Positions 855-26,005 of a stretch of DNA of 64,000 bases are shown here, one piece after another; the first letter of the stretch is position 1; each line of letters begins with the position of its first letter. Source of the stretch: Candidatus Helarchaeota archaeon (GTDB lineage Archaea > Asgardarchaeota > Lokiarchaeia > Helarchaeales > RDOG01); contig JAHPZH010000002.1 of NCBI GenBank assembly GCA_019058315.1, forward strand, positions 544,001-608,000, written 5' to 3'. The translations under genes were made by a program, and so were the position numbers. The notes below the pieces were generated by a model, which saw nothing but the letters and a program-made list of their open reading frames with translations, was not told where the DNA came from and did not search any database.

Positions 855-2759
855 ATGAAGGAGGAATCGAAAGAAAATTCATTAAAATTAACTTCAGAAG
901 AGACTTTAAAATCATATGGTTTAGATGCGAATAGTATTAATACGTATTTCAACTTAACTGGGAGAGGTCCCGTTGCTATAGGGGAAATTAACATTTTAAC
1001 TGGATTATCGACTGAAGAGGTCCAGAAAATTATCGATGTATTGCTCGAGAAGGGTCTAGTTAGAAGTATTCCTTCTATTGTTCCTAGATATGAAGCACTT
1101 CCCCCATATATGGTGCTATTACAACAGTTAAATGATTTTCAGGATTTCGTTAGAAATCTTCAATCAGGTTCATCAAGTTCATTAGGCATTCAATTAAAGA
1201 AAGTACAGGATAGTATTGATAAAATTAAACAATTAAAAGATTTTCAAAACTCTCTAAATGAAGTTAGAGATAGTGTACCTAAATCTATAAATGATCAATT
1301 AAAGAAATTTGAAGATCAAATTAGTGAATTTACACATTTAGAGAAAATTCGTTCTTTTATTCATCAAACCGAATCCGATATGACAAAATCGTTAGAAGAA
1401 CAATTTGGCGATTTTGAAGAAAAGTCAGATACACAAATACTGAAACAATTTACAGAATTTGAAAATTTTATGAATGAAATAAAAATGAAATTTATGCAAG
1501 ATTTGCAGATTCAATTTGGTAATTTTATGGGACAATTTGGTAGATTAATGGATAGTTTCATGAGCTTTTCTCAATTTATCGTTAATACTAGTGAAATGAC
1601 ACCTGATCTTCTACGAAAGGAATTTAAAAAATTTGAAGACCAAGTTCAAGGTTTAAAATCAAAAATATCTCAGGAATTTGAAACTCGATTCAAAATGAAG
1701 GCCTTTAAGCAATTTATAGAAAATTTTGTTCAGGATATTGTAATCAAAGAATTTAATTCCATTCGTGAAAGTTTTCAAGATGATGTTATTAAAGTAACTG
1801 CTTCAACTTTTTCAAGAATTGAAGAACAAACTGAAAATATTTCAGGAAATATGTTAACAGAAATTGATAATTTAAAATCATTATTTAGTGAAAAAATTGT
1901 CCAAGGTGTAGAAAATAATGTTAATAATATAGATAGTCAAATGAAAAGCATATCAAATGCTGTTAAAACTCAACTTATAACTCTTGAAGAACTATTTAGA
2001 AAGGGAATTATTAACAAATTACAAGAAAATATGCAAGAAGCAGAAAAAAAGATTGATGGCTCAACTCAAAGCATTACCGACGATCTTAAAGTTTGGCTAA
2101 CAGAAAGTCTTGGCAAAAATATCCGCGAAAATTTAATTCACACTCTTAATAATCTTGATAAACAATTAAGTACATCATCAAGTGATATTTTAGATATTTT
2201 TACAAATTTAGAGAATATTTTTAGAGAAAATATAATTAACTCCCTTCAAGAAGTATTAAAGTCAATTGAGCAAAGAATTGAACTTTCAGAGAAGACTATG
2301 AAAGATTTTTGGCAAATTGCTAAAGAAAAAGCTGTCTTTAAATTTGAAGATATTTGGTTTGTTCGTGGCAGGGAAGGAATGATCGCTCAAATAAATGAAT
2401 TAATAAATCATACAAAAGCAAGAATTCTAATTGTAGCACCAAATTTAGAGGACATTGATGTGACTTCTCTTAAGAATTTATCATCACATATAAATGTCCG
2501 AATAGCTGCAAAAATAAATTTGGACAAACCTACATGTAAAGATATATTGAACCAACTCCAAAAATTTTCAAATATTGAGTTAAGAAACTATATTAAAAAA
2601 GATCTTTGGGGAGCAGTAAAAGATGGAGAGGAAATCGTTATAGGAGTAGCCTCTGAGAAAGAAGTTGCTGGAATGGCTTCTATTTTAATAGATCATGTCC
2701 GTATGTTTCTAAATCCTCTCGAAAATGCTTGGCTAATTGGAAAAAAACAATGGCAGTGA
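855..2759 (+). CDS. TrmB-family protein with ~410-aa repetitive helical insertion between wHTH and C-terminal effector-like domain
   Basis: N-term wHTH ending LLEKGLV..PRYEALPP; C-term IWFVRGREG..LINHTKARILIVAP..KDGEEIVIG typical of TrmB C-domain; long amphipathic helical middle; GGTG SD at 846. Confidence 0.7.
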   Translation: MKEESKENSLKLTSEETLKSYGLDANSINTYFNLTGRGPVAIGEINILTGLSTEEVQKIIDVLLEKGLVRSIPSIVPRYEALPPYMVLLQQLNDFQDFVRNLQSGSSSSLGIQLKKVQDSIDKIKQLKDFQNSLNEVRDSVPKSINDQLKKFEDQISEFTHLEKIRSFIHQTESDMTKSLEEQFGDFEEKSDTQILKQFTEFENFMNEIKMKFMQDLQIQFGNFMGQFGRLMDSFMSFSQFIVNTSEMTPDLLRKEFKKFEDQVQGLKSKISQEFETRFKMKAFKQFIENFVQDIVIKEFNSIRESFQDDVIKVTASTFSRIEEQTENISGNMLTEIDNLKSLFSEKIVQGVENNVNNIDSQMKSISNAVKTQLITLEELFRKGIINKLQENMQEAEKKIDGSTQSITDDLKVWLTESLGKNIRENLIHTLNNLDKQLSTSSSDILDIFTNLENIFRENIINSLQEVLKSIEQRIELSEKTMKDFWQIAKEKAVFKFEDIWFVRGREGMIAQINELINHTKARILIVAPNLEDIDVTSLKNLSSHINVRIAAKINLDKPTCKDILNQLQKFSNIELRNYIKKDLWGAVKDGEEIVIGVASEKEVAGMASILIDHVRMFLNPLENAWLIGKKQWQ

Positions 2760-2808
2760 AGCCTATCCCAATTTAAAGTTCTCGATTTCAGAATAAGTCT
2801 TATTGAAC

Positions 2809-3900
2809 TTAGCTATAATTTTTTTCCAATAGTTCAAAGTGCTTTACAGCAAGAGGTCTATCTAATTTTCGAAGTCTAAGTAAATTTCTGATATTTTCAA
2901 GTAAATAACTTGGAAAAAAGGTTTGGAACTTAATATCACTTGTTAATAATGTCCATTTTTTTAATTTATGGTCTTTAAACTCAGCAAAAATGTTCATTCT
3001 CAATAAATTTTGGTATACATCTTCAATTTCTTCTTTATCAAAATCTGAATGCTTTGAAATTTCTTCAGTGAGTATTGGTTGTTTTCGTAGTATTGAAATT
3101 AAATCATAATATATAGGATTTGTAATAATTTCAGCTAACCTTTCGATGTCTCTTGAGGAAGGTGTATATGCTTTAAAATATTCTATAAGATATTGAATGT
3201 AATCATTAGCCATAACAGAGGAAAATTTTTTTGACTGAACTTTTGAGATAATATCATATGGCGGAAACCGAGTCCCATAAAAATCGCGAATTAAGAAGAC
3301 ATTTTCAACTCTTCCTTTCTTAATAAAATCTCTAATAATTAAATTGCCTCTTATCAAATGGGATAATAAACTATCCATATTGGAAATGGTCTCTCCAAGT
3401 TCTTTTTCTAGTCTATCTTTTAGATCCATTATTGTTAATGGCCCTTCTTTAAGGATTTCAAAAAGCTTATTCAATTTATAATCTTTTAGAATAAATGCAT
3501 AAATTTGTTCCTGAGTTAATTTACTGGATTTAACTATATACAAGAAAGTTTTTGACAAAATATCTTTAAATTTCTCTGTTCCAACATTTGAAATAATATT
3601 ATTCACTGATTCTAATAGTGGATCTTCAAACCAATTTGTATCTTCATCAATATCTAATAAAATAGCAATTGCATATTGAGTTTGGACATCAATTCCTGTA
3701 AAATAACTCAAAACATTATCTGCACCTGATAATTTAATGGATAATAATCCTGGTCTTCCTTCTCCCATTGCATGTGATGTATAGATTCTCATAATTTCAT
3801 CTTGTTCAATTTTAAGATCTTCGGGATATTTTGAATCTAATATAACTCCTTCTTTATCGTCCCATTTTATAACTGCTATTCCTTTAGGGATTTTAATCAC
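2809..3900 (-). CDS. uDENN/longin domain plus tandem winged-helix protein
   Basis: N-term IAVIKWDDKEGVILDSKYP resembles the uDENN/NPRL-type longin start (hhxFDxxxGPxhxxxYP); two wHTH-like segments follow; GTG start 18 bp after upstream stop with AAGGAA. Confidence 0.6.
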   Translation of the reverse strand: MIKIPKGIAVIKWDDKEGVILDSKYPEDLKIEQDEIMRIYTSHAMGEGRPGLLSIKLSGADNVLSYFTGIDVQTQYAIAILLDIDEDTNWFEDPLLESVNNIISNVGTEKFKDILSKTFLYIVKSSKLTQEQIYAFILKDYKLNKLFEILKEGPLTIMDLKDRLEKELGETISNMDSLLSHLIRGNLIIRDFIKKGRVENVFLIRDFYGTRFPPYDIISKVQSKKFSSVMANDYIQYLIEYFKAYTPSSRDIERLAEIITNPIYYDLISILRKQPILTEEISKHSDFDKEEIEDVYQNLLRMNIFAEFKDHKLKKWTLLTSDIKFQTFFPSYLLENIRNLLRLRKLDRPLAVKHFELLEKNYS

Positions 3901-3918
3901 TTCCTTAATTTAATTAAT

Positions 3919-6900
3919 TTATTTCTTTTTACCTGCTTTTTTTTCCATTTTTCCAAAACCTTTTTTCTTACCAGTTAAAGGTATTAAAATTTCATTCTGG
4001 AATTTTTCAAAATCTTTTTCGACTAACCCAGAAATTAGATCTGTTCTGGAGCCAACTTCAAATGGTTTAACGGTCTTTTTCTTTTTAATATTCTTAATTG
4101 CCTTTCGCATTCTCCTTACAATCACCGGATATCTAAAATGTCTATACCAAGCCATATATACCGATAATCCTGCAATTGCGCCTACCATAGGAATTATTAT
4201 CATTGCTAATAATGGCCTAATATCTTCTGGTGGGAAAAATAGTGGTGGCTGTTCTTTTCCAGGTTCTTGTGGTGGAAGTTGAACAACAAGATAAATTATT
4301 ATATTTAAAGCTGTATAATTTTCTTTGAATGCTGAAATAGTAATATCATATGTTTTTGTTGTCATAGGGGCATCCATTGTAAATTCATATGTCCCATCTA
4401 GATTATCGGTTAAATTTCCTTCTCCTCTTACCCAATAGTATGTTACTGTGGCGTTCTTTATGAACTCTATCCAACCCGTTGAAGAATTATCAACCTCAAA
4501 AGTAACTCTAATCGTGAAACTACTTCCAGGTGTAACATTTAATATATTATATTCAGCTGTCAGAATGGTTGGTATGTTAAAAATTTTTAATAAAAATGTA
4601 TCAGTTTTTATTTTATAACCTAAATTAGAACCGTTAGCTTTAACAAATATATAATAAACACCAATACCAAGATTACTTGTATTTAAATTTAAATAGTAGA
4701 AACCAGAGCTATTATAATTAAAACCACCAGCACCTAATGAATCCTCACTATAGGTAATATTTGCGTTTTCAATTGGTTTGCCACTTGAATCATTATAATA
4801 TAATTTCAATGTAATATTTTGTTTTAAATAAGTGTCATCAAGATCTTCTAATATAAGAGTTGCATCTATAAGTTCAATAAATATACTAATAGGGATTGAA
4901 GCATTTGCATAATTTGACTTATTTGCGGTAATATAAATCAAAAATGTTCCTACTCGACCAAAGATCGAAGTATTAAAGGTAAGATTATAAATTCCAGATG
5001 AAGAAATCTCAAAGTAAGAATAATTACTTAAAGACCAGTATTGTGCTCCAAACTCGAAGCTAACAGATAGATTTGCATCAGAAATTAATGTATTATTATC
5101 AGTATCACCATATGAAATTAGAATTGAAATATTAGATCTAAATTCAACAGGATCTGGTTGAATATAACTGAGATTTGTAAATATATTGTGAATATTTATT
5201 GATATGTAAATTTCTCTTGTTTCATATTTCGACTTACTTGCATTAATTTTCAAAGTGTAGGTTCCAATTGTTTTTGATGTCGAATTTAAAGTTATTGTAT
5301 ATTTTCCTGATCCCACCTCTTGAATTGTATAATAACCCAAGTCCCAATTACATTGAATAGTAGCATTTGAAATCCCTTGTGTTGAAGTTTCATTATAAAA
5401 TATTTCTATAGTTTCATTTCTTCCCCAAGGAACAAATACTCCACCTACTTGAGGGGATGTGAGCGTTGTACTTCTATCGACAACAAAAATACTAATGGGA
5501 TTTGTAGCATTAGCATAATTTGCTTTATATGCGGTTACATAGATCACATATGTTCCTCCACCTCCAAAAATGGAAGTATTAAAGGTAAGATTATAAGTTC
5601 CAGATGGAGAAATCTCAAAGTAAGAATAATTATTTAAAGGCCAATATTGAGCACCCAGTTCAAAGCTAACCGTAATATTTGCATTTGATATTAATGTACC
5701 ATTATCTATATCTCCATATTCAAGTTGAATAGTAATATTTCTATCTATTCCAACGGGACTGGGTTGAATGTAAGTTAAATTTGTATATATATTACGGATA
5801 TTTATTGAAATAAAAATTTCCTTTGTTTCATATTTTGCCTTACTTGCATTAATTTTTAACGTATAAGTCCCAATCGTTTTTATTGTTGTATTTAAAGTTA
5901 TATTATATTGACCAAAACCCACTTCTTGAATGGTATAATAACCCGAGTTCCAATTACATTTTACAGTTGCATTCGAAATCCCTGGTCCAAGTGATTCATT
6001 ATAATAAACATCTATAGTTACATTTCTTCCCGAAGGAACGAATAGACCCCCTATCTGAGGAGAGGTGAGCGTTGAAGTTCTATCGCCAACAAAGATACTA
6101 ATAGGGGTTGTAGCGTTCGCATAATTTGATTTATTTGCTGTGACATAAATCACATAAGTCCCTCCACCACCAAAAACCGAGGTATTAAACGTGAGGTTAT
6201 AAGTTCCTGGGGAAATCTCTTGATAGGAGAAATTATTTAGAGGCCAATATTGGGCATCAAAATCAGAGCTGACAGTGATGTTTGCACCTGAAATTAACGT
6301 GCCGTTATCAATATCTCCATATGTAAGTTGAATAGTAACGTTTCTATCTATTCCTATAGGGCTGGGCTGAACATATGTGATATTTGTATATATATTGCGG
6401 ATATTTATTGATATGAAAATTTCTTGACCTATATATTTCAACTTACTTGCATTAATTTTTAACGTGTAGGTTCCAATCGTCTTTACTGTTGTATTTAAAA
6501 TTATTCTATATTGCCCTGAGCCCATCTCTTGAATGATGTAGTAGCCTGCGTCCCAATCACATTTTACCGTTGCATTAGAAATCCCTAAGCCAAGTGATTC
6601 ATTATAATTAACATCTATGGTAATATTTTTTCCCCAAGGAACGAACAGCCCACCTATCTGAGGAGAAGTGAGAGTCGTACTCCTATCGCTAACAAAGATA
6701 CTAATAGGGGTTGTAGCGTTCGCATAATTTGATTTATTTGCTGTGACATAGATCACATAAGTCCCTCCACCACCAAAAACCGAGGTGTTAAACGTGAGGT
6801 TATAAGTTCCTAGGGAAATCTCTTGATAGGAGAAATTATTTAAAGACCAATATTGAGCACCAAGATCAGAGCTGACAGTGATGTTTGCACCTGAAATTAA

Positions 6901-9360
6901 TGTGCCGTTATCTATATCTCCATACTTTATTTGAACAGTAACATTTCTATCTATTCCTACTGGACTGGGTTGAATGAAAGTGAGATTTGTGTAGATATTG
7001 CGGATATTAATAGATATATAAATTTCTTGATTGACATGCCCAGTTTTACTTGCATTTATTTTTATTGGATAAATTCCTATCGGTTTTATAGATGTATTTA
7101 AAATTATTTGATAATGACCTGAACCAATTTCTTGAATAGTATAATAACCTAAGTCCCAATCACATTTTATAGTTGCATTAGTGATGCCTTGATTTAAGGA
7201 ATCATTATAGTTGACGTCTATGGTCACATTTGTTCCCCAAGGAACGAATAGTCCACCGATTTGTGGAGATGTTAGATTCGTAGTTTGTGTAACTTCAAGC
7301 TGAATTAAATCTTGTTTATATTGGGATTTATAATATGTCTTATTTGCGGAAACCGATACATTATATAACCCATATTGCCAACCAGCGGTATCAATTTCTT
7401 CAATATAGATCCCACCACCGTAATATTGCATAGAACCTTTTATTTCTGTCGCATTATCAATTGTATAATTCACAGTTGCCCCAATAATACCCTCTTCTTC
7501 ATTTATATCTGTATAATTTACTTTAATAAGCACTGTATCCCCAGTAAAAATAGGAGTAACTAAAGCATCTTGATCCTCAGCCCGATCTAAAGTTGTATCG
7601 TGAGTTACATCAAAATTTAAAACGATTAAGCCGACTTGGGATGCATTTCCACCATTCCATCGAATATTAACTGTATATTTGCCTGCACTTGCATTTTTAG
7701 CTCCTAAAGTAAAGGTATCAAACTCAACATATCCAGAAGAATCGGGTGATTTATTTTGAGATACTTGTTTCCATGTAGTGCCGTTTGGATAAAAAACAAG
7801 CAATGAAGCGTTTGTTTGGGTTAGATCAGGAATTAATTGATCATTTATTGTTGCATTAATTTTCATAGTATCGGAAATTTCAAAGCTAGTATTTTTTTCC
7901 CATGTGGAAATAGCCCATTTCCAAATTGTCGCGTTTAACACATAATTAGGAGCCTCGGCTATAAATTTCCATCTACCGTTAATGGCAATACTATTTGGGA
8001 TAATTAAAGTAGAATTTCCGGGACCTGAAGTCGGTAAAACATCATTAATTTTGTCATTACCGTAAGGATCAATCACTTGAGTTATATTCCAATTCACAGG
8101 CTTCGAAACATTAAAATAATAATCTATTTCATAAGTTCCTGGTATAGAAACCCCAAAATACATTGTCCATTCCGCTCTTGTTTCATTTCCTACTTTAAAT
8201 TTACTTCCTTGTAATCCAAGATCTGTGGTTGTAAAAGTAGAAGATGTAGCATTAATGAAGATATCAGTATCAATATAAACCAAACCTGATGAATTTGATG
8301 AAAAAGAAAAGTTATACTCAGAACCTCCTGCAGTTCCCAGCCAAGTATCATTAAAAGAAGAAGAACCTGTACCAGGATCACCTAAGTCTGAAATTTCTAC
8401 TGTTGTTCCATGTTCATTATCGGTTAAGTTAAGCGCAATTTGAGATGGTTTTGGAATACTTGACATTTTTAAGGTAATATTATCAAAATAAATCGATATA
8501 TTTGCAGCTGGACTAAATAAACCATTACCAAATGCAACACCAAATCGAACACTTATATTTCCTGGTGGATTAAAACCATAAAGTTCTGGATTAAATGGAA
8601 CTATTATATCTGAATACCAAGTATCATTTTCTATATCGTTTCTTAGAGAAACCAATTTGAATGCTGTTTCTACTCCATTTAAACCTATACTACAATAAAG
8701 GGAGGTACCTCCTGGTGCGTCTCTATTAACGATCCAATCAGTATCATTTGTTATTAATCTATAATTAAAATCAATAATCCAATCTTCAAATGGAATTTCA
8801 TTTCTATCAAAATTAAAAGTATAATTCCAATAAGAATCTGTATTTTGCCAGTTATTTGAGGCATTTGCGATAAATTTAAGATATATGGAGTCGTTTGAAT
8901 CAAGAGGCTCATCTAACCAGCCAAATTCCGCTAATTCTGGGTCTGAACTCGTAGTATAATTAGTCCAAGAGGTGCTATCATATCCAAAATCAAAAGTATC
9001 ATTTATCCATAACCTATCATATTCATAAATATCTGTGATGTTAAATCGAATTTTATTTGCTTCCCAATTCTCAGGAACAATTATAGATGCATTTCCAGAT
9101 TTTGATAAATTAAGCCCATTTTCTTGGAAAATTCCTCGTCCAAACTCCGTCACATTTTGATGAATTCCAACTCCCGAATATTCCGCTGAATTGGATTGAA
9201 TAGAAATAATTGGGAACTCAATATTAGATTCGGATCTATTGATAAATTGAGAGTACAAATTGTCATCATTAGATAAATTATAGGTATTTAAATTAGTAAA
9301 AATCATTATTGAGAGAAACATGAGTGTTAAAAAAAATGATTTTAATCTTTTTGTTGGCAT
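3919..9360 (-). CDS. Giant single-pass cell-surface glycoprotein (1813 aa) with tandem Ig-like repeats and basic cytoplasmic tail
   Basis: N-term hydrophobic signal, beta-rich body with many NxS/T sequons, four ~200-aa repeats, C-term TM (LLAMIIIPMVGAIAGLSVYMAW), ~70-aa tail. Confidence 0.85.
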   Translation of the reverse strand: MPTKRLKSFFLTLMFLSIMIFTNLNTYNLSNDDNLYSQFINRSESNIEFPIISIQSNSAEYSGVGIHQNVTEFGRGIFQENGLNLSKSGNASIIVPENWEANKIRFNITDIYEYDRLWINDTFDFGYDSTSWTNYTTSSDPELAEFGWLDEPLDSNDSIYLKFIANASNNWQNTDSYWNYTFNFDRNEIPFEDWIIDFNYRLITNDTDWIVNRDAPGGTSLYCSIGLNGVETAFKLVSLRNDIENDTWYSDIIVPFNPELYGFNPPGNISVRFGVAFGNGLFSPAANISIYFDNITLKMSSIPKPSQIALNLTDNEHGTTVEISDLGDPGTGSSSFNDTWLGTAGGSEYNFSFSSNSSGLVYIDTDIFINATSSTFTTTDLGLQGSKFKVGNETRAEWTMYFGVSIPGTYEIDYYFNVSKPVNWNITQVIDPYGNDKINDVLPTSGPGNSTLIIPNSIAINGRWKFIAEAPNYVLNATIWKWAISTWEKNTSFEISDTMKINATINDQLIPDLTQTNASLLVFYPNGTTWKQVSQNKSPDSSGYVEFDTFTLGAKNASAGKYTVNIRWNGGNASQVGLIVLNFDVTHDTTLDRAEDQDALVTPIFTGDTVLIKVNYTDINEEEGIIGATVNYTIDNATEIKGSMQYYGGGIYIEEIDTAGWQYGLYNVSVSANKTYYKSQYKQDLIQLEVTQTTNLTSPQIGGLFVPWGTNVTIDVNYNDSLNQGITNATIKCDWDLGYYTIQEIGSGHYQIILNTSIKPIGIYPIKINASKTGHVNQEIYISINIRNIYTNLTFIQPSPVGIDRNVTVQIKYGDIDNGTLISGANITVSSDLGAQYWSLNNFSYQEISLGTYNLTFNTSVFGGGGTYVIYVTANKSNYANATTPISIFVSDRSTTLTSPQIGGLFVPWGKNITIDVNYNESLGLGISNATVKCDWDAGYYIIQEMGSGQYRIILNTTVKTIGTYTLKINASKLKYIGQEIFISINIRNIYTNITYVQPSPIGIDRNVTIQLTYGDIDNGTLISGANITVSSDFDAQYWPLNNFSYQEISPGTYNLTFNTSVFGGGGTYVIYVTANKSNYANATTPISIFVGDRTSTLTSPQIGGLFVPSGRNVTIDVYYNESLGPGISNATVKCNWNSGYYTIQEVGFGQYNITLNTTIKTIGTYTLKINASKAKYETKEIFISINIRNIYTNLTYIQPSPVGIDRNITIQLEYGDIDNGTLISNANITVSFELGAQYWPLNNYSYFEISPSGTYNLTFNTSIFGGGGTYVIYVTAYKANYANATNPISIFVVDRSTTLTSPQVGGVFVPWGRNETIEIFYNETSTQGISNATIQCNWDLGYYTIQEVGSGKYTITLNSTSKTIGTYTLKINASKSKYETREIYISINIHNIFTNLSYIQPDPVEFRSNISILISYGDTDNNTLISDANLSVSFEFGAQYWSLSNYSYFEISSSGIYNLTFNTSIFGRVGTFLIYITANKSNYANASIPISIFIELIDATLILEDLDDTYLKQNITLKLYYNDSSGKPIENANITYSEDSLGAGGFNYNSSGFYYLNLNTSNLGIGVYYIFVKANGSNLGYKIKTDTFLLKIFNIPTILTAEYNILNVTPGSSFTIRVTFEVDNSSTGWIEFIKNATVTYYWVRGEGNLTDNLDGTYEFTMDAPMTTKTYDITISAFKENYTALNIIIYLVVQLPPQEPGKEQPPLFFPPEDIRPLLAMIIIPMVGAIAGLSVYMAWYRHFRYPVIVRRMRKAIKNIKKKKTVKPFEVGSRTDLISGLVEKDFEKFQNEILIPLTGKKKGFGKMEKKAGKKK
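4875..7280 (-). repeat. Four tandem ~600-bp intragenic repeats (each probably two Ig-like domains)
   Basis: Unit start (T/S)xLTSPQ(I/V)GG(L/V)FVP recurs near 7280, 6680, 6080, 5477; near-identical DNA between units, e.g. 6721-6840 vs 6121-6240. Confidence 0.9.
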
Positions 9361-18229: not shown

Positions 18230-20389
18230 TCAATTTTTTTTATCAAGATTAAATACTTTATTAAAAATATCTTTAGTATTTTGAAATTGCGAAATATTTC
18301 CTGCAAATGATTCGAGTCTATCCTCATATTGTCTTTCAAATTCTTTTACAAAATTGAATAAAGATCGAACTAAATATTCATTTGTTTTACCATTAATTAG
18401 GAGAAGTGCTTGAATATAATCCCCTGTTTCAACTTCTATATTATAATTTTTATATTTTAGACCTGTTACAGGTGTTTCTTTTTTAGAAATTTCAGTACCA
18501 AAACTTTGTATTGCTGTGATGAATCCACTTATTAAATCAGCATCTAATTTAATTGCACCTAATTGGTCTTGATAAATAGCTAGGCCATTATTCTTATGTA
18601 CTACGATAACATAATTAAGAATTGAAAGCGCATATATTCTTTCTATTAAAGCTAAGTTTTTATCGATATTTTCTGTTCCTATTTTAAAATCTTCCGTATA
18701 TTTATCAAAATCTTCATATGTATCTTTAAATGATGAAATATCATGAGTTGCTAGCTCCCGCAGTTCTTTTACCCATTGAATTAATTCATATTCTAATTCT
18801 ATCGCTGTATCATCATCAATGCAGCTTTCTTCCTCATACATTCCTTGAAATTTTAAAATCCATTTGTTCATGGATTCCAAAATTCTAAAATCAGGATAAT
18901 ATTTTTTCAAACCATTTTTAATTTTTGATAATGATAAAGTTATTTTTTTGATTTTTTCCTCATTACAACAAATATTAAAACATTCCTTTAATTCATTACT
19001 ACAATTAAATATTTCTGTTATCTTTGTAGCCACTTCCTCAGATTTTTCTAAGGTTTTTAAAGAATGTTGTAATGATATCGTTATTAAATTTCGTATATAA
19101 GCCAATAATCCAGTTGTTTGAGTTAAATCATTAGCCCAAACTTCAATAATTATATTAGGTTGATCCAATCTGACATTCACTACAATTTGTTGTCCTGTAA
19201 CTTTTACTTTACCAGAATAAAGTGTCGATAAATTATTTTTGTCTTCTTTAACTTTGGACAGATCCAATGCCTCAATTTGGCTAAGAGCAATATTTAATGC
19301 TTGTTTTTTGGAAATATCTCCATAATCTATTTTTGTAGTAGATTTTTTTAGCTTACTAATCCATTCATTTATCTCATACTCGGACATTGACTGTGGAATT
19401 ACCAAGGGACACTTTATCGCTATCTCTTTCGGATTTATTGTTAATGTATGGGCATTTCCATATGCATCTTGGTATGAAACTGCCCCAAAAACGGTTGATT
19501 TTCCACAAGTATTTGGAATTAATGTGAAATCTACCCCTCTTGAATTGTGTGGAGGTAAATTTGTAATTTTTTGAACAGATTCATCCCAAAAAAATTGATC
19601 TGATGGGTTTAACGTTACTAAAATATTATTTATACTCATGTCTGTATTGTTTTGTACCGCTACTTTGAATCTAATATTACCACCAAGATAATCAAATTCT
19701 CGTTTAACTGCAACCATTTCTGTAGGTACAGATATTTTTGGAGAGTAATAAATGATTTTATTTTCTACTGTGGAATCTATTAAATTGTATTCTAATAATT
19801 TCTTTAAATGTGGCTGGATTTGACCATGACTTAAACTTAAATATCTTTCAAGGTCGGATAACCTGATTTTTTCATAACGAATTATATGATCAAAAATTAA
19901 TTTTGTTCTTTCTTTCTTTAAAACTAATACTTTATCATCTTGAGTCTCATCAAATTCGAATAAAAAGTATGCCTTTTTATTCATAAATTTCTTGCTTCTA
20001 AGATATCCAAATTTTTCAAGGAATTTAAGATGTCTAAAGGCCATATACGATCCTAAATCAAAGGCTCTCTGAATTTCTCTAACATGAGAACCAGGATTAT
20101 TCTTTATATAATCGTAAATTCGAGCTCTTTTCTCGCTTTCTAACACATTAGCTTTAGTTACACTTGAACCTTCAATTAAGTAACCCTTTTGATACATATA
20201 ATTTAATGAACTTGTAATTTCATCTTCTGAATTACTAAGTTTGGAAGTACATAATTTATAAATATCATCAAAATTGAAGAATTTCTTCCTACTTCTAAGT
20301 TGTGAAGCAATTTCCAAAATTTTTTTTTCTAGCTTGCCTAAACCCTTTAACTTCGATATATAGAAAACCCCCTTATCGTTTCGGGTCAT
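18230..20389 (-). CDS. Fusion: tandem wHTH + adaptin/coatomer appendage-like (Ig plus platform) + helical region + C-terminal longin
   Basis: RARIYDYIKNNPG..HLKFLEKFG (COG3398-like HTH); VKREFDYLGGNIRFKVAVQN..IKCPLVIPQSMSEYEINEW; VIVVHKNNGLAIY..DADLISGFITAIQSFG. Confidence 0.65.
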   Translation of the reverse strand: MTRNDKGVFYISKLKGLGKLEKKILEIASQLRSRKKFFNFDDIYKLCTSKLSNSEDEITSSLNYMYQKGYLIEGSSVTKANVLESEKRARIYDYIKNNPGSHVREIQRAFDLGSYMAFRHLKFLEKFGYLRSKKFMNKKAYFLFEFDETQDDKVLVLKKERTKLIFDHIIRYEKIRLSDLERYLSLSHGQIQPHLKKLLEYNLIDSTVENKIIYYSPKISVPTEMVAVKREFDYLGGNIRFKVAVQNNTDMSINNILVTLNPSDQFFWDESVQKITNLPPHNSRGVDFTLIPNTCGKSTVFGAVSYQDAYGNAHTLTINPKEIAIKCPLVIPQSMSEYEINEWISKLKKSTTKIDYGDISKKQALNIALSQIEALDLSKVKEDKNNLSTLYSGKVKVTGQQIVVNVRLDQPNIIIEVWANDLTQTTGLLAYIRNLITISLQHSLKTLEKSEEVATKITEIFNCSNELKECFNICCNEEKIKKITLSLSKIKNGLKKYYPDFRILESMNKWILKFQGMYEEESCIDDDTAIELEYELIQWVKELRELATHDISSFKDTYEDFDKYTEDFKIGTENIDKNLALIERIYALSILNYVIVVHKNNGLAIYQDQLGAIKLDADLISGFITAIQSFGTEISKKETPVTGLKYKNYNIEVETGDYIQALLLINGKTNEYLVRSLFNFVKEFERQYEDRLESFAGNISQFQNTKDIFNKVFNLDKKN

Positions 20390-20557: not shown

Positions 20558-23500
20558 TTATTTTTCTAGTTCTTCTAGTTCAGTTAACCATTCTTCTATT
20601 TCATCTTCTTCCAAAGTAACTAAATCTCTCAGTAATAATTGCTTTTCTTGCTCTGTAAGACTTTTTAGGTTTTGAACTCTTATATATACTTCTTCTGAAA
20701 TACTTGAGATTGGGCTAGTTATCATTGATTTTAGCTCTTCATAGGATACTTTTCTAAGTTTCAATGATTCGTCAGATTCTCTTAATACTTTCCGTATCTC
20801 TTCTGCACCTATACCGACTTTCTTTTTGACTTTTGTTTTCATGACCCTCTTGGTTTTTACTCTTGTGGATCTTCTCTTAACTAGTAATGTTGCTGTGACC
20901 GTTGCACTTGCTGCAATACTACCGATAATAATTATGATTATTATCGTAATGTCTTCTCCTGGTGGTATGAAGATGATAGGGTTTGGATTTTTTTTCACTT
21001 TAAATTGATAAGTTGCTGATATGTCAATTTGTCCACTTGTATCATTTACCCAAACTGAGTAATTAATTGTTTTTTTACTGGCATTCAAAGGAACATATGA
21101 AACAAAGCTCCAATAACCATCTGTGGTGCTTCCAGAAATAAAATTCATTTCAATATATTGGAATGAACCGTAGAGATTTGTATATAGAAATACATGCGAG
21201 ATTCCTTGATCGTCTGTTACATGTGCAGTTATATTAATGATGTCGAGAGGTCGTGGTTTATTATTATCAATGCTAACATCTATTATAGAAGGTGCGTCAT
21301 CCAAGATTATTTGATATTGGTAGCCACTAACACTATCCGAATTATCATTAGAATCATTTGTCCAGATGGAATAAGTAATTGTTGTACCAACAGAACCTTG
21401 AGGAATTATATAGTCCCAATAACTATCTTGAGCAGTGCCTGAGAGGAAATTCATTGAATAATCTTGAGAACTACCAGTGTAATTTGTATTGATTATAACT
21501 GAGTTAATTCCTACATTATCAGTTATATGTACAGTAATATTCACTGTGTCAAAATTATCTGGAATCAATGGGTCTTGTGAAACACCAACAATATTTGGAT
21601 CTTCATTATCTGTTATAAGATATTGGTAAGATATTGAAGTATTTGGATTATCAGAAGTATCATTAACCCAGATGGAATAATTGATTGTTGTTCCAGCCGC
21701 ACCTTGAGGAATAGTATAATTCCAATAACCATCTTGAAATGTGCCTGATAGAAAATCCATTTCGTGATCTAATGGGATTCCGGTGTGATTTGAATTGATT
21801 AAAACCGTATCAACTGCTTCATTATCCGTGATGTGGACAGTAATATTAACGGAATTCAAATTACCAGGGCTTAATGGGTCTCTTGAAACTGAAATTATAT
21901 CAGGGACTTCGTTGTCACCAATTATATATTGATATGGTCCAACGGTGTCTGAATTAGTGTTTGTATCATTCACCCAAATTGAATAAATGATTGAAGTTCC
22001 AATGGGATATGCGGGGATAGTAAAGTTCCAATAACCATCTTGAGTAGTTCCTGAAAGAAAATCCATTTCATAATTTGTTGGGGTTCCGCTGTGGTTAGAA
22101 TTGATTAAAACTGTGTCTACTTCTACATTATCAGTAACATGGACAGTAATATTTACTAAATCTAAGTCACTAGGACTATTAGGATCCCTAGAAACTATAC
22201 CTATATTAGGATCTTCGTTATCCACAACAAGATATTGGTAAGAATTTGTATTATTCGAATTGCTACTTGTATCATTTACCCAAATGGAATAATTGATTAT
22301 TGAACCAGCAGCAACTTGAGGAATTTGATATTTCCAATAACCATTTTCAACCTTACCAGATATAAAATTCATTGAGTAATTTACGAAACTTCCAGAATGA
22401 TTCGTATTAATCATTACTTTATGAACACTAACGTTATCGGTAATGTGTACTGTTATATTGACGATATCCAAATTGCCAGGTGAAGTTGGATCTTGTAAAA
22501 CCTCGAGGATATTTGGTACTTCAGTATCATTAAAGACGCATCTAGGGCCTAAAGGATTAATAGTAGGTGGATTTGCTATAAGGGTATCATATAAATCGTC
22601 AACAAAATCTTGTTTATCATTAACATTTGTCGAACCTACATCTTTATAGAATTGCCAGAACCCGAAACTGTTGGTAATCGCAGTGTTACCACTCTCTACT
22701 CCGATAGCAATAGAAATAGAAGCAAGAGGGTTACTAGGAAATTCACATTCTCTAATCCGCATGTCATTTAAATACGGATCCGGAGTCATATCCCATAAAG
22801 TAATTAAAGTATCGGAATCACCAGTATCTTCTGTAAACATTTTTCCCTCGTCTAACACTATATAATGATCTTGCCAACTAATGCCAGTATAATCAAAAGT
22901 TTCACTTGACCAAGCCCCACTTGTATAGTAATACTGTGCATCAAAGTCAATAATTTTATCTTCGGCCTGAAAACCTCCTCTAAACCAACAAGTCCCTGAA
23001 CCAGGATAATTTTGATATCTGTAAATATAAGAATTTTCGTAAAATCTAAAGTACGTCCAATAATTGTCATCCGCAATTTGCCATGCTTCAATAAAAATTG
23101 GACCATCATTGATTATTGGAGTAGCATATAAATTGCCGAAAGGATTACAAGCTACATGTCCCATTTGATAACGGGTTCCTCCACCAAGATGTTCGTTTCC
23201 ATCAGTATCGAACTGGCGAAGAACTGCCATATTATCAATATTCATTATTGCTGAACCACCATCCATAAAATTTACCGTGTAACCTGTCCTTGAAATATCC
23301 GTATAACCTGCAGGATTTGTTGGAGTACTATTATAATAAACTCTATATGATTTAGTTTCTGATGCACTTAAACTATCTATGAATGCAATATTTGCAGAAG
23401 ACACATATAAAATTTCATCTTCTTCATATCCACTTGACCATGAATTATCTGTAGCAGCTACATAGATACCTGCTTTAAAATTACCACTTGTATGAAGATA

Positions 23501-26005
23501 TTCCCTATATACAGAAGTTTGTGGAATAACAAAATCAATATTTACCCCAATCACAGACCAATTCAGACTATTCTCGTCCCAATACCAAACATTATATTTA
23601 TCAGTACCACAATCAAATGTGCATTTAAAAGTATACCACTTGTTGGTTTCGTATGCAATTCCAGTATCCTGAGCTGCACCATCACTATAATAAAAGTTTC
23701 CAGTATTATAAAAACCAAAACATACAGCATATCCACCGGATCCGACTAATGCAATAGCATGATATGTATCTATTGTAGCCATAGCAGTAATATAATATGT
23801 TCCACTTACTTGTGCAGTAAAGTCCTTTTCCATCTCACAAAAATCTCCAGTAGTACTATTGTCAATACACTCTACGACATTTTTATATCCCATAAAGCGT
23901 GGTAAAACCTGAATTTGTGTATTTGATCTTTCTGTAATCGTCCAACCGCTCGGATCTCCGAAATCAGATGAATTAGAAAATGTCTCATTCGCATTAGGTA
24001 CTATATTATAGACTTGTGAAATCAGCTCGTCTCCAGGACTATAGGGCGATTCATATATACGTAGAGAGTCTTTATAGCAGTACTTTCCTTCTTCAGTGAA
24101 AATTACAGGATCTATGATAACATCTGTTTGATTTACACCTGTATTTTCAGTAACTTGGAATTCTTTAAAAAGTATTAAAGTACCATTTCTGGAGTCTAAT
24201 GTTCCAATGGTAGGTGGATTTTCAATTAATGAATTATGTAAATTATCAACGAAATCTTGTTTATCGTTAATATTTGTCGACCCCGCATCTTTATAGAACT
24301 GCCACGCCCCCATGCTATGAGTAACTGCAGGTTCATATGTAGAATTTATTCCGATGGTTACACCAACACTTGCAGGTTCTGGAAAGTCGGCTTCTCTTAT
24401 CATTATATCATCCAAGTAAGGATCCGGTGTCATATCCCATAATGTAATTAAAATATTTGGGTCTCCAGTTTCTTCTTGAAACATTTTACCCGCATCTACT
24501 ACATTGAGATTACTTTGCCAAGATCCACCTGTATAATCAAATTCTTCATATTGCCAGCTACCAGTTTGATGAAAATAAGTTCCTTCAAAATCGAAAGTCG
24601 CTATACCACTACCTGAACCAAAAACAGCCCAAGCATAAACACCCACACCTGAATAATTATGATATTTATAGATATAAGAATTTGCATAATATCTATAAAA
24701 ACTCCATTCGCTTGCGGTATCAACGTGCCAGGCTTCGATAAAGATAGGACCATCAGATATAATTGGAGCAGCCGCTACGGAACCACCACCTCCATCATAT
24801 TCATGGGTAACAGTATTTTTATAAAAAGAATCTCCAGACATGCGCTCATCCCCATTTTTATCAAATTGGCGAATTAGTTCAAGGTCATCAACATACATCA
24901 TAACAGATCCACCATCCGTGAAATTCACTGTATAATTTGTCCTTGCGATATTAGTATATCCTGCTGGATTTGTCGGGGTGCTATTATAATATACGCGATA
25001 ATCTTTAGTTTCTGAGGCAGTTAAATTATCTATAAATGCAATATTAGCAGAAGACACATATAATATTCTATCTTCTTCGTATCCACTTGACCATGAATAA
25101 TCAAGAGCTGCTATATATAAGGCTTGTTTTATTAGTGAGCTATGAATCCAAGTTTGGTATAAAGTAGCACTATAAACATATAAATTAACATCCAATGCTA
25201 TAGAAACCCAGCTGAAAGAGGTTTCATCCCAATACCATACTGAATATTCATTTACTGAACAATCAAAGTCGATTTTAAAGGTGTACCATTTATTAGTCTC
25301 ATAATAAATTCCACTATCAAATGTTGCTCCTCCACTAGCATAGCAAATAGTTCCTGTTTGATTAAAATATAAACTAACTCCATATCCTGATGCACCATTT
25401 ATTGAAAATTCAAAGGTTGTGTTTTCTGTAGTTGTCATGAGTGTTACATAGGCTGTCCCAGAAACTTGATTTGAAAAACCATTTTTCATATCAACCATAT
25501 CACTACTTGAATTGTCAAACATTTCAACTACTTTTTTATAACCATTAAAACGTGGTAAAACCCTAATTGAAGTATTTAGAGGTTCAGTTACTGTCCAACC
25601 ACTCGGATCTCCGAAATCAGGTGATGTGGAAAATGTTTCATACGCATTGGGTACAAGGTTATAAACTTGTGAAATCAGCTCGTCTCCAGGATTATAAGGC
25701 GATTTATATACACGTAAAGAATCTTTATAACAGTATTTTCCTTCTTCAGAGAAAGTTACAGGATCTATTATAACATCTGTTTGATTTTTTCCCGTATTTT
25801 CAGTAACTTTAAATTGTCTAAAATATTCGAAGTCGGTAGCTGCTTTTATATCCATAATTGAATTGTTAGTTATCTTAGGATCTTTAGCATAAGGAAATAT
25901 TGGTAAATTATTGCTTAATAAAAAACTGCAAAATATAGCTGTGTTAAGGATTATTGCACCTATAATTAAGAAGGTAATGCCTTTATTCTTTTTAAGGTTT
26001 CCCAT
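20558..26005 (-). CDS. Giant single-pass surface protein (1815 aa): two ~551-aa repeats, five ~102-aa Ig-like repeats, TM, ~100-aa cytoplasmic tail
   Basis: Signal segment, duplicated lectin-like modules, repeated DNExPxI..VNITVHITDN..GYWNYTIP units, TM ITIIIIIIIGSIAASATVTATLLV. Confidence 0.85.
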   Translation of the reverse strand: MGNLKKNKGITFLIIGAIILNTAIFCSFLLSNNLPIFPYAKDPKITNNSIMDIKAATDFEYFRQFKVTENTGKNQTDVIIDPVTFSEEGKYCYKDSLRVYKSPYNPGDELISQVYNLVPNAYETFSTSPDFGDPSGWTVTEPLNTSIRVLPRFNGYKKVVEMFDNSSSDMVDMKNGFSNQVSGTAYVTLMTTTENTTFEFSINGASGYGVSLYFNQTGTICYASGGATFDSGIYYETNKWYTFKIDFDCSVNEYSVWYWDETSFSWVSIALDVNLYVYSATLYQTWIHSSLIKQALYIAALDYSWSSGYEEDRILYVSSANIAFIDNLTASETKDYRVYYNSTPTNPAGYTNIARTNYTVNFTDGGSVMMYVDDLELIRQFDKNGDERMSGDSFYKNTVTHEYDGGGGSVAAAPIISDGPIFIEAWHVDTASEWSFYRYYANSYIYKYHNYSGVGVYAWAVFGSGSGIATFDFEGTYFHQTGSWQYEEFDYTGGSWQSNLNVVDAGKMFQEETGDPNILITLWDMTPDPYLDDIMIREADFPEPASVGVTIGINSTYEPAVTHSMGAWQFYKDAGSTNINDKQDFVDNLHNSLIENPPTIGTLDSRNGTLILFKEFQVTENTGVNQTDVIIDPVIFTEEGKYCYKDSLRIYESPYSPGDELISQVYNIVPNANETFSNSSDFGDPSGWTITERSNTQIQVLPRFMGYKNVVECIDNSTTGDFCEMEKDFTAQVSGTYYITAMATIDTYHAIALVGSGGYAVCFGFYNTGNFYYSDGAAQDTGIAYETNKWYTFKCTFDCGTDKYNVWYWDENSLNWSVIGVNIDFVIPQTSVYREYLHTSGNFKAGIYVAATDNSWSSGYEEDEILYVSSANIAFIDSLSASETKSYRVYYNSTPTNPAGYTDISRTGYTVNFMDGGSAIMNIDNMAVLRQFDTDGNEHLGGGTRYQMGHVACNPFGNLYATPIINDGPIFIEAWQIADDNYWTYFRFYENSYIYRYQNYPGSGTCWFRGGFQAEDKIIDFDAQYYYTSGAWSSETFDYTGISWQDHYIVLDEGKMFTEDTGDSDTLITLWDMTPDPYLNDMRIRECEFPSNPLASISIAIGVESGNTAITNSFGFWQFYKDVGSTNVNDKQDFVDDLYDTLIANPPTINPLGPRCVFNDTEVPNILEVLQDPTSPGNLDIVNITVHITDNVSVHKVMINTNHSGSFVNYSMNFISGKVENGYWKYQIPQVAAGSIINYSIWVNDTSSNSNNTNSYQYLVVDNEDPNIGIVSRDPNSPSDLDLVNITVHVTDNVEVDTVLINSNHSGTPTNYEMDFLSGTTQDGYWNFTIPAYPIGTSIIYSIWVNDTNTNSDTVGPYQYIIGDNEVPDIISVSRDPLSPGNLNSVNITVHITDNEAVDTVLINSNHTGIPLDHEMDFLSGTFQDGYWNYTIPQGAAGTTINYSIWVNDTSDNPNTSISYQYLITDNEDPNIVGVSQDPLIPDNFDTVNITVHITDNVGINSVIINTNYTGSSQDYSMNFLSGTAQDSYWDYIIPQGSVGTTITYSIWTNDSNDNSDSVSGYQYQIILDDAPSIIDVSIDNNKPRPLDIINITAHVTDDQGISHVFLYTNLYGSFQYIEMNFISGSTTDGYWSFVSYVPLNASKKTINYSVWVNDTSGQIDISATYQFKVKKNPNPIIFIPPGEDITIIIIIIIGSIAASATVTATLLVKRRSTRVKTKRVMKTKVKKKVGIGAEEIRKVLRESDESLKLRKVSYEELKSMITSPISSISEEVYIRVQNLKSLTEQEKQLLLRDLVTLEEDEIEEWLTELEELEK
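21000..22530 (-). repeat. Five tandem ~306-bp intragenic repeats
   Basis: DTEVPNI, DNEDPNI, DNEVPDI, DNEDPNI, DDAPSII unit starts near 22530, 22223, 21917, 21611, 21302. Confidence 0.9.
22540..25820 (-). repeat. Two tandem ~1653-bp intragenic repeats
   Basis: F(K/Q)VTENTG.NQTDVIIDPV.F.EEGKYCYKDSLR occurs near 25800 and 24150; offset 1653 bp. Confidence 0.9.

Follow-up and report, generated by a model that had tools for sequence, protein, structure and literature searches.

Receptors of the integrin type combine a glycosylated, variable ectodomain with one membrane helix and a conserved membrane-proximal tail that is read by cytoplasmic adaptors. The solved complexes of VAMP7 and of AP2 sigma2 establish that a longin fold can read a short cytoplasmic segment of another protein. 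In eukaryotes, the longin proteins NPRL2/NPRL3, FLCN/FNIP and SMCR8/C9orf72 are regulators of small GTPases, and for the longins of GTPase-activating proteins (GAPs) a catalytic arginine and a 'GP' motif are described (PMC12290439). Here we report on a juxtamembrane tail motif, carried by two giant surface proteins (P0001 and P0002), and on its candidate longin-type partner. Both proteins are encoded in a 64,000-nucleotide stretch of Candidatus Helarchaeota archaeon DNA (GenBank assembly GCA_019058315.1, contig JAHPZH010000002.1, positions 544,001 to 608,000 of the forward strand), which we call the window and in whose numbering coordinates are given unless a contig or locus is named.

For Asgard archaea, NPRL2-like longin families, longin fusions and 'complex surface proteins' are mentioned in the consulted parts of PMC10936438, 10.1101/2020.10.19.343400, PMC9834061 and PMC12290439. 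Makarova et al. (2024, mBio, PMC10936438) proposed a trafficking link for Asgard-specific cytoplasmic proteins that join Vps28-C, adaptin appendage and longin domains with helix-turn-helix/PCI-type domains. Asgard archaea in culture lack an ordered S-layer, and what they show at the surface instead is a large set of complex proteins (Lokiarchaeum ossiferum paper, PMC9834061). A preprint of 2020 on Asgard diversity (10.1101/2020.10.19.343400) places most eukaryote-like genes outside conserved neighbourhoods and lists other operons. We found no description of the tail motif or of the gene pair in the full texts searched, which were themselves seen in part; supplementary tables, outside that search, might list the neighbourhood.

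Results

A conserved tail follows the membrane helix of two giant surface proteins

P0001 (1813 amino acids, aa; 3919-9360) and P0002 (1930 aa; 55270-61062) were translated from open reading frames (ORFs) of the minus strand, and the plus-strand translations of both loci are riddled with stops. Each has an N-terminal hydrophobic anchor, a very long ectodomain, a single C-terminal hydrophobic helix and a tail, and both are predicted to be single-pass surface proteins; P0001 starts with a signal or anchor, and its ectodomain is rich in N-x-S/T sequons and carries repeated units. Judged by the hydrophobic stretch, the C-terminal membrane helix spans residues ~1717-1739 of P0001 (4144-4212, minus strand) and ~1772-1796 of P0002 (55675-55749, minus strand), inside the matches of a helix-plus-tail profile to residues 1720-1790 and 1776-1847, respectively, and the cytoplasmic tail that follows is 73 residues long in P0001 and 134 in P0002. 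We counted 106 sequons in the P0001 ectodomain against a shuffle mean of 31.5 (3.4-fold; shuffle maximum 43) and 43 in that of P0002 against a mean of 25.0, and none in either tail. Enrichment in the ectodomains and absence from the tails are consistent with an ectodomain outside and a tail inside the cell. Neither protein has a Pfam family, the scan of P0001 giving sub-threshold Ig-like matches only.

A sequence-only reading of the window had pointed to a 35-residue string of identical spacing behind the helix of both proteins. The strings are letter-perfect at residues 1742-1776 of P0001 (4033-4137) and 1799-1833 of P0002 (55564-55668), and both begin 2-5 residues past the hydrophobic helix. 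To look at this likeness independently of the two proteins, we used a leave-out profile of the tail alone, with no membrane helix, built from eight copies in six other ORFs of the genome. It matched both proteins at the right position, P0001 with E 2.8e-8 (residues 1742-1788) and P0002 with E 0.002, and over the 9189 ORFs of the genome these were the two best non-training matches, the next having E 0.65. The control set comprised 124 segments from 121 ORFs of the genome in which a membrane helix is followed by a tail with a net charge of at least +6; seven of these segments beat E 1e-4, all seven were family members, and the next reached 0.15. None of 2000 shuffles attained the real score of P0001 (41.0 bits; shuffle maximum 11.8) or of P0002 (24.2 bits; maximum 12.1). 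Given the ranking of the leave-out profile, the control segments and the shuffles, positive-inside composition, which had been named as what might undo the claim, does not explain the match. The stretch shared by P0001 and P0002 is real, beyond chance or composition; the motif covers residues 1741-1788 in P0001 (type I, as defined below; 3997-4140, minus strand) and 1799-1845 in P0002 (type II; 55528-55668, minus strand).

The tail is a segment of ~45 residues after the C-terminal membrane helix in which an invariant proline is followed by a strongly basic amphipathic helix. All 64 aligned tails have the proline, and conservation reaches 90% or more at seven basic positions; most columns keep to either Lys or Arg (R 0.97, K 0.91, R 0.89, K 0.92), two columns being mixed. 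The median net charge of the first 35 residues is +12, and hydrophobic positions recur 3-4 residues apart. Median pairwise identity was 0.57 for the tail, 0.41 for the head ectodomain and 0.40 for the membrane helix (1653 pairs, 58 proteins).

Between P0001 and P0002 themselves, the best BLASTP segment consists of the membrane helix and the tail (E 2e-5, 27% identity over 86 residues), and the ectodomains reach E 0.003-0.004 only. Four collinear pairs of ectodomain motifs had also been proposed; three of them sit in one segment of 21% identity over 424 columns with E 0.004 in this single comparison, so that this part of the proposal holds weakly.

The motif gene nearly always lies beside a longin and winged-helix partner gene, or is fused to it

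Eighteen nucleotides (nt) past the P0001 stop begins a minus-strand gene (2809-3900) for a protein of 363 aa, with a longin domain (residues 1-125) followed by two winged-helix modules. We call it the partner. It is homologous to five other neighbours of motif-bearing genes in the same genome and matches the profile of the partner family at E 1.1e-154. Of the eight motif ORFs of the genome, six have such a homologous gene for ~370 aa nearby on the same strand; five of these pairs overlap or lie at most ~20 nt apart, and the sixth has one gene between. The sequence-only reading had looked to the window's other longin, appendage and PH proteins for a docking partner, and the gene context redirects that expectation to the 363-aa protein.

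To see how general the arrangement is, we retrieved 78 loci with the partner profile from public metagenome-assembled genomes labelled Loki, Hod, Hermod, Odin, Thor, Heimdall, Atabey and Hel. Because these loci were fetched through the partner, the operon frequencies are conditional on its presence; the converse rate, of motif genes without a partner, rests on this genome (two of eight) and on the P0002 orthologues described below. The helix-plus-tail motif was present in 64 of the 78 loci, always on the strand of the partner. Where more than 250 nt of upstream sequence were available, a motif ORF ended between 30 nt inside and 300 nt before the partner start in 58 of 66 loci. The remaining eight divide into four (Odin, Atabey) with the motif ORF just downstream of the partner and four with none. 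A single partner is preceded by one surface gene in 37 loci, by two in tandem in 16 and by three in 7, and in loci with the type I tail a median of 79 nt separates the motif from the start of the partner that follows. The partner is acidic (median net charge -12, isoelectric point ~5.1) against the +12 of the first 35 tail residues. Pairwise distances of tail and partner correlate with r 0.55, those of head and partner with r 0.43, and the partial r is 0.46; the 666 pairs behind these values depend on one another, and we regard this as modest support for coupling of tail and partner.

Natural fusions provide the strongest evidence that tail and partner may act as one unit. All seven long frames inspected, from six Lokiarchaeia genomes, contain a membrane helix, the motif and then the whole partner domain in one ORF. 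The motif is of type II in these frames (E 5e-11 to 8e-9 with the helix-plus-tail profile), and the partner domain, recognised at E 1e-78 to 8e-85, starts a few tens of residues past it. Three of the fusion ORFs are complete, with ~2660-2670 aa, an N-terminal anchor and an ectodomain of ~2190 aa. There were no fusions among the 78 partner loci, and no fused relatives were found at E <= 1e-5 in a collection of 5.8 billion proteins, which is weak evidence. As a separate observation, the N-terminus of the predicted 98-aa protein P0048 aligns to positions 1-29 of the partner profile, and its residues 36-97 align to the tail motif; the order is the reverse of that in the fusions, and P0048 may be a mis-call or a misassembly.

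The partner has no Pfam or NCBIfam family, and the nearest clusters of a protein atlas are labelled 'hypothetical protein' only. Its AlphaFold2 model has pLDDT 88.6 and pTM 0.82. Residues 7-125 run strand-strand-helix-strand-strand-strand-helix, which is the longin order, and are followed by the two winged-helix modules with connecting helices. The best whole-chain matches in Foldseek were GATOR1/SEA entries containing NPRL2/NPRL3 (E 1.2e-4 to 3.9e-4, TM-score ~0.25) and FLCN-FNIP2. Structural matches of the longin domain were headed by a Lokiarchaeal roadblock-longin protein (Z 11.8), followed by the SEA complex (11.1), GATOR1 (10.9), VAMP7 (10.8) and FLCN-FNIP2 (10.7), and the alignments to the Npr/NPRL chains (Z 11.1 and 10.9) span 124 residues. 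The neighbours of the second winged helix are ArsR/SmtB-type regulators (Z ~8). As modelled, the partner is NPRL2/NPRL3-like in fold.

Further longin genes occur near these loci. Stand-alone homologues of the partner longin domain, 126-139 aa long (E 1e-18 to 3e-25), are encoded a few kilobases from partner genes on contigs C6 (274244-274624), C1 (442729-443118) and C11 (119798-120187), and a related protein of ~314 aa lies upstream of surface genes in 16 fetched loci (cluster of 17). At locus L006 (contig C6, about 5283-6419), where the partner stands beside a 1549-aa surface protein, the profile match begins 219 nt before the first ATG/GTG/TTG; the open frame is 378 aa, which suggests that the start codon is unusual or the sequence in error. 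Across the whole genome, iterated searching from the Ras-like domain at 9629-10576 yielded ~117 small-GTPase-like ORFs.

The motif marks a family of membrane proteins across Asgard archaea

Iterated local searches of the 5.79-Mb genome returned ten strong copies of the motif in eight ORFs of 383-3583 aa. The motif invariably comes after a helix that passes from the outside to the inside. Two of these ORFs (1104 and 1903 aa) hold the whole unit of anchor, ~410-aa ectodomain, helix and tail twice, with the motif of both copies on the predicted cytoplasmic side. They lie at contig C11 425963-429277 (L001) and contig C5 1330797-1336508 (L002), and a further tandem-unit ORF occupies positions 2131-5355 of locus L068; four membrane passes and two ectodomains are predicted for them. 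Past its second tail, the 1903-aa protein has a cytoplasmic region of ~650 residues made of repeated helical units.

The tail is not bound to one ectodomain. A head domain of ~410 aa is common to 54 of 73 uncut motif ORFs, and the 19 that are without it include the largest proteins. Alignment of the head profile to the single sequences by hhalign gave E 0.13 for P0001 and E 0.0094 for P0002, neither a clear match, and the tail is found on ectodomains without detectable mutual similarity.

A search of 1.84 billion representative proteins with the tail profile gave 185 matches at E <= 0.001. Among the best 150 of these 185, the motif ends at most 30 residues from the C-terminus in 125, and a hydrophobic 17-mer stands just upstream of it in 130 of the 134 copies with enough upstream sequence. 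The search of Asgard genomes that the sequence-only reading had suggested was run with a hidden Markov model of the tail on 400 genomes sampled from the phylum: the tail profile matched 268 and the partner profile 310, usually in several copies. The tallies per family run parallel: neither profile matches a genome of families f12, f14, f15, f17, f28 and f29, and each matches 1 of 31 in f13 and 1 of 12 in f18. In f22-f25 the tail was not found in this sample, and the partner matches there are weak. The motif thus marks a membrane-protein family found across Asgard archaea.

Two tail types accompany two partner clades

In a quick maximum-likelihood tree of 86 partner sequences, none of them dropped, one side (clade A) has 72 rows, and wherever the gene order is known it is surface gene, then partner. 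The other side (clade B) has 14 rows, made up of the cases with the partner first and then the surface gene (Odin, Atabey and three in this genome) and of several solo partners. The label 'surface gene upstream' changes twice on this tree, against a mean of 11.3 for shuffled labels. Of the fused partner domains we compared two (G204:C6 and G169:C9), and both come nearest to this genome's clade-B partners.

The tails fall into two types as well. Type I has two prolines and then an Arg/Lys run; type II has only one proline, with an acidic patch behind the leading basic residues and a Trp/Leu-Gly-Leu element ~40 residues on. Tail type matches partner clade. P0001 combines a type I tail with the partner at 2809-3900, which sits on the clade A side, and P0002 has a type II tail. 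Judged by these tails, the two proteins belong to one superfamily but to different branches of it. To call them divergent paralogs is too simple, and the ectodomain homology behind that claim is marginal.

P0002 has no partner beside it. The 164-aa and 293-aa proteins encoded downstream are unlike the partner profile (hhalign E 0.5 and 0.81), and one common partner for both giants, as had been supposed, does not fit a pair in which P0001 adjoins a clade-A gene and P0002 has none nearby. The second motif ORF of the genome that falls outside the six pairs encodes a protein of 3583 aa. As hidden partners of P0002 and of this protein we considered and rejected the 164-aa, 293-aa and 172-aa proteins downstream of them, which are unlike the partner profile and unlike each other, and a 371-aa neighbour on the opposite strand, which is an iron-sulfur protein.

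At E <= 1e-6, P0002 has relatives in eight further genomes of its class; the weakest of these (G130, E 2.8e-7) is doubtful. Orthologues in five of the other genomes keep the juxtamembrane motif (helix-plus-tail profile E 6.3e-19 to 7.5e-9). They also keep a second tail element, a helical C-terminal motif at residues 1869-1925 of P0002 (55288-55458, minus strand), of which jackhmmer found three copies in two ORFs of the genome, one in P0002 and two in the 3583-aa protein. By eye, distant look-alikes of this element seem present in the tails of a third giant protein of the window, described below, and of a 1388-aa protein.

Two solo partners are encoded in the genome, one of them a long form of 603 aa with a C-terminal helical extension (contig C10, 120949-122757). 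Clear orthologues of the long form are found in 11 of 160 other genomes of the class (E <= 6.5e-78; next best 2.3e-57). Eight of the 160 have the P0002-type tail, and seven of these eight are among the 11 with the long partner. Outside the window's own order, three of the four genomes with the tail, from three genera, fall among the 5 of 149 with the long partner, and the fourth is the one with the weakest tail match (E 2.8e-7). As P0002-type tail and long partner co-occur across genomes, this correlation among related genomes suggests that P0002 may use an unlinked partner.

A third gene and other features of the window

On the other side of the window's partner gene, at 855-2759 on the plus strand, lies a gene for 634 aa with a TrmB-type winged helix (Pfam TrmB, 1.9e-8), a long coiled coil and a small alpha/beta domain. 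It matches the profile of the gene that lies downstream of the partner in related loci at E 9.1e-125, so that window 855-9360 holds all three parts of the unit; here the third gene is convergent with the partner and not co-directional. Such a gene for ~630 aa is present in 59 of 76 partner loci, and 68 of the 76 extend at least 1500 nt downstream of the partner. In 56 loci it is the next gene after the partner and has the same orientation, the median gap being 7.5 nt. In this genome, homologues, that at 855-2759 among them, flank three motif genes; the profile found none near P0002. The third protein has ~400 residues of long helices. Its model is of low confidence (pLDDT 59.7), and Foldseek gave no match at E <= 0.001.

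The window encodes a third giant surface protein (1815 aa; 20558-26005, minus strand), in which profile searches did not find the juxtamembrane motif. It has a conserved tail of its own, which recurs in five or more further ORFs of the genome (phmmer E 4e-33 to 2e-6), and is adjoined by a 719-aa winged-helix/appendage/longin protein (18230-20389, minus strand). A Ribophorin-I-like protein and glycosyltransferases are also encoded in the window (13761-17948).

Discussion

What this analysis brings out is the tail motif as the shared element of a surface-protein family, its two types, the third gene of the unit and the P0002-type case, in which the motif gene and the partner genes are unlinked. 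The partner is nearly always encoded beside the surface protein or fused to it, and the tail is therefore probably where the two meet. On this evidence from gene context, we consider it likely, if by no means assured, that the tail supplies the helix on which the longin and winged-helix protein docks or packs; the direct contact, and any signalling or sorting role that might go with it, are what we infer. The proposal that the tails are docking sites for a cytoplasmic partner, as expected of receptors or adhesins and not of passive S-layer subunits, has gained strong indirect support from the operon gene, from the fusions and from the way in which tail type tracks partner clade.

Several points weigh against docking of the partner by the tail. 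The motif persists in the fusions, where recruitment is unnecessary, so that tethering would not be its sole role. There is no partner beside the 3583-aa motif protein (contig C3, 800487-811238, locus L005), nor in the fetched flanks of the five P0002-orthologue loci. The partner tree comes from the quick search, the careful one being unfinished, and the window's own partner sits in it on a long branch; moreover, the phyletic and tree statistics overstate independence through shared kin history. A link to small GTPases also fares poorly: around the module we counted ten small-GTPase ORFs in 7 of the 78 loci against ~22 expected at this genome's density, and because such genes are not enriched, the gene context does not support a role as GTPase regulator.

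The alternative that survives best, although we think it rather unlikely, is that the tail is lipid-facing or topogenic, a basic amphipathic helix on the inner leaflet. So basic a helix, placed just behind the membrane, could have acidic lipids as its ligand. It would then orient the membrane helix, or serve to anchor the surface protein or to cluster it, and the longin protein would work through another contact or be tied to the surface gene in genetic terms only. A charge of +12 within the first 35 residues, a start 2-5 residues past the helix and hydrophobic positions 3-4 apart are what such a helix would look like, and retention of the motif in fusions and in P0002-type proteins without an adjacent partner fits it too. 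Generic membrane binding, however, needs neither fixed Lys/Arg columns nor an invariant proline. Moreover, the 7 of 124 segments of helix plus basic tail that match the profile are all family members, and the tail type shifts together with partner clade and gene order.

Still less probable, in our judgement, is that the tail docks the third protein of the operon, or a complex of it with the longin protein, and not the longin protein alone. The tight placement of the third gene behind the partner and its presence at three motif genes of this genome speak for such an arrangement. Yet the fusions join the tail to the longin protein and not to the third protein, and the type II loci of this genome (C1, C6 and C5_350115) have a partner but no adjoining third gene. 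That the similarity is a mere legacy of common ancestry with no separate function, or a signal in the nucleotides by which the downstream gene is expressed, is very improbable: the faint collinear likeness of the P0001 and P0002 ectodomains and the short distance from type I motif to partner start would suit it, but the tail surpasses both ectodomain and membrane helix in conservation, sits on ectodomains without detectable mutual similarity and is retained at the amino-acid level in reversed gene order (type II), without a following partner (P0002 type) and inside fusions.

If the tail does dock the partner, the module might work as follows. The basic tail helix would be a contact or packing element for the acidic longin and two-winged-helix protein, which may be encoded directly downstream (type I, as for P0001), directly upstream (type II), fused behind the tail, or elsewhere (P0002 type). 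A longin platform would in this way be kept against the cytoplasmic side of the membrane, beneath an ectodomain that is variable and glycosylated, and the third operon protein, with its TrmB winged helix, coiled coil and alpha/beta domain, would be the likely scaffold or output.

The family offers a concrete link from Asgard surface proteins to the cytoplasm, with a short conserved tail, a confidently modelled partner, fusions that argue for a joint action of the parts, and two types of tail and partner on which specificity can be put to the test. Were the contact real, it would be an archaeal receptor tail read by a longin-type adaptor and would bear on the origin of eukaryotic sorting and of membrane-anchored signalling modules. 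More tentatively, and as a possibility that we rank well below the contact itself, the module could be a widespread and modular form of Asgard transmembrane coupling, in which swappable glycosylated ectodomains are joined through a standard helix and basic tail to an NPRL2/3-like longin adaptor and a winged-helix/coiled-coil output. It might then represent a prokaryotic forerunner of eukaryotic recognition between receptor tail and adaptor, as in cargo selection or membrane-anchored longin regulators, and the two tail types with their matched adaptor clades might be separate channels. Independently of mechanism, the tail motif is a simple annotation signature for a family without a Pfam or NCBIfam name.

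Among known systems, archaeosortase signals share with these tails a C-terminal helix followed by basic residues on archaeal surface proteins. Signals of the PGF-CTERM type comprise a signature motif ahead of the helix, a C-terminal helix within the last ~25-30 residues and a basic end of a few residues. In P0001 and P0002 the helix is succeeded by 73 and 134 residues, respectively, and it is there that the conserved sequence is found; because of this tail length we rejected the idea that they are archaeosortase substrates. The likeness to the juxtamembrane motifs of integrin-type receptors is one of analogy only, without a relation in sequence or fold, the adaptor here being of longin/winged-helix type. 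The protein encoded at 18230-20389, beside the third giant, is one of the Vps28-C/appendage/longin-type Asgard proteins. Its family is not that of the partner, and the tail beside it is not the one described here; in a search of the neighbourhood proteins it gave no BLASTP match at E 1e-4 to the partner family. The available portion of PMC10936438 does not mention a surface-protein partner or a juxtamembrane motif for such proteins.

The closest relatives in architecture are NPRL2/NPRL3 (Npr2/Npr3, of GATOR1/SEACIT), FLCN/FNIP and SMCR8/C9orf72, which like the partner have an N-terminal longin domain and then helical and winged-helix modules. The differences from NPRL2/NPRL3 are considerable: the whole-chain TM-scores of the partner are only ~0.25, and Pfam NPR2/NPR3 gave no match at E <= 0.01 in the window partner or in any of 64 family members. 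We know of no pairing of an NPRL2/NPRL3-type eukaryotic protein with the tail of a surface receptor. The eukaryotic proteins are regulators of small GTPases, whereas the Asgard operon is without a GTPase gene. The nearest precedent for the proposed contact comes from longin-peptide complexes, which were among the matches of the partner model (4afi, Z 10.8; 2vx8, Z 9.7; 2jkr, Z 9.0) and whose entry titles name the bound peptides, the VAMP7 longin domain with Hrb or delta-adaptin and the AP2 core with a dileucine peptide. The ligands of VAMP7 and AP2 are acidic or hydrophobic eukaryotic sorting signals, whereas the candidate ligand here, as read from its sequence, is a strongly basic juxtamembrane helix.

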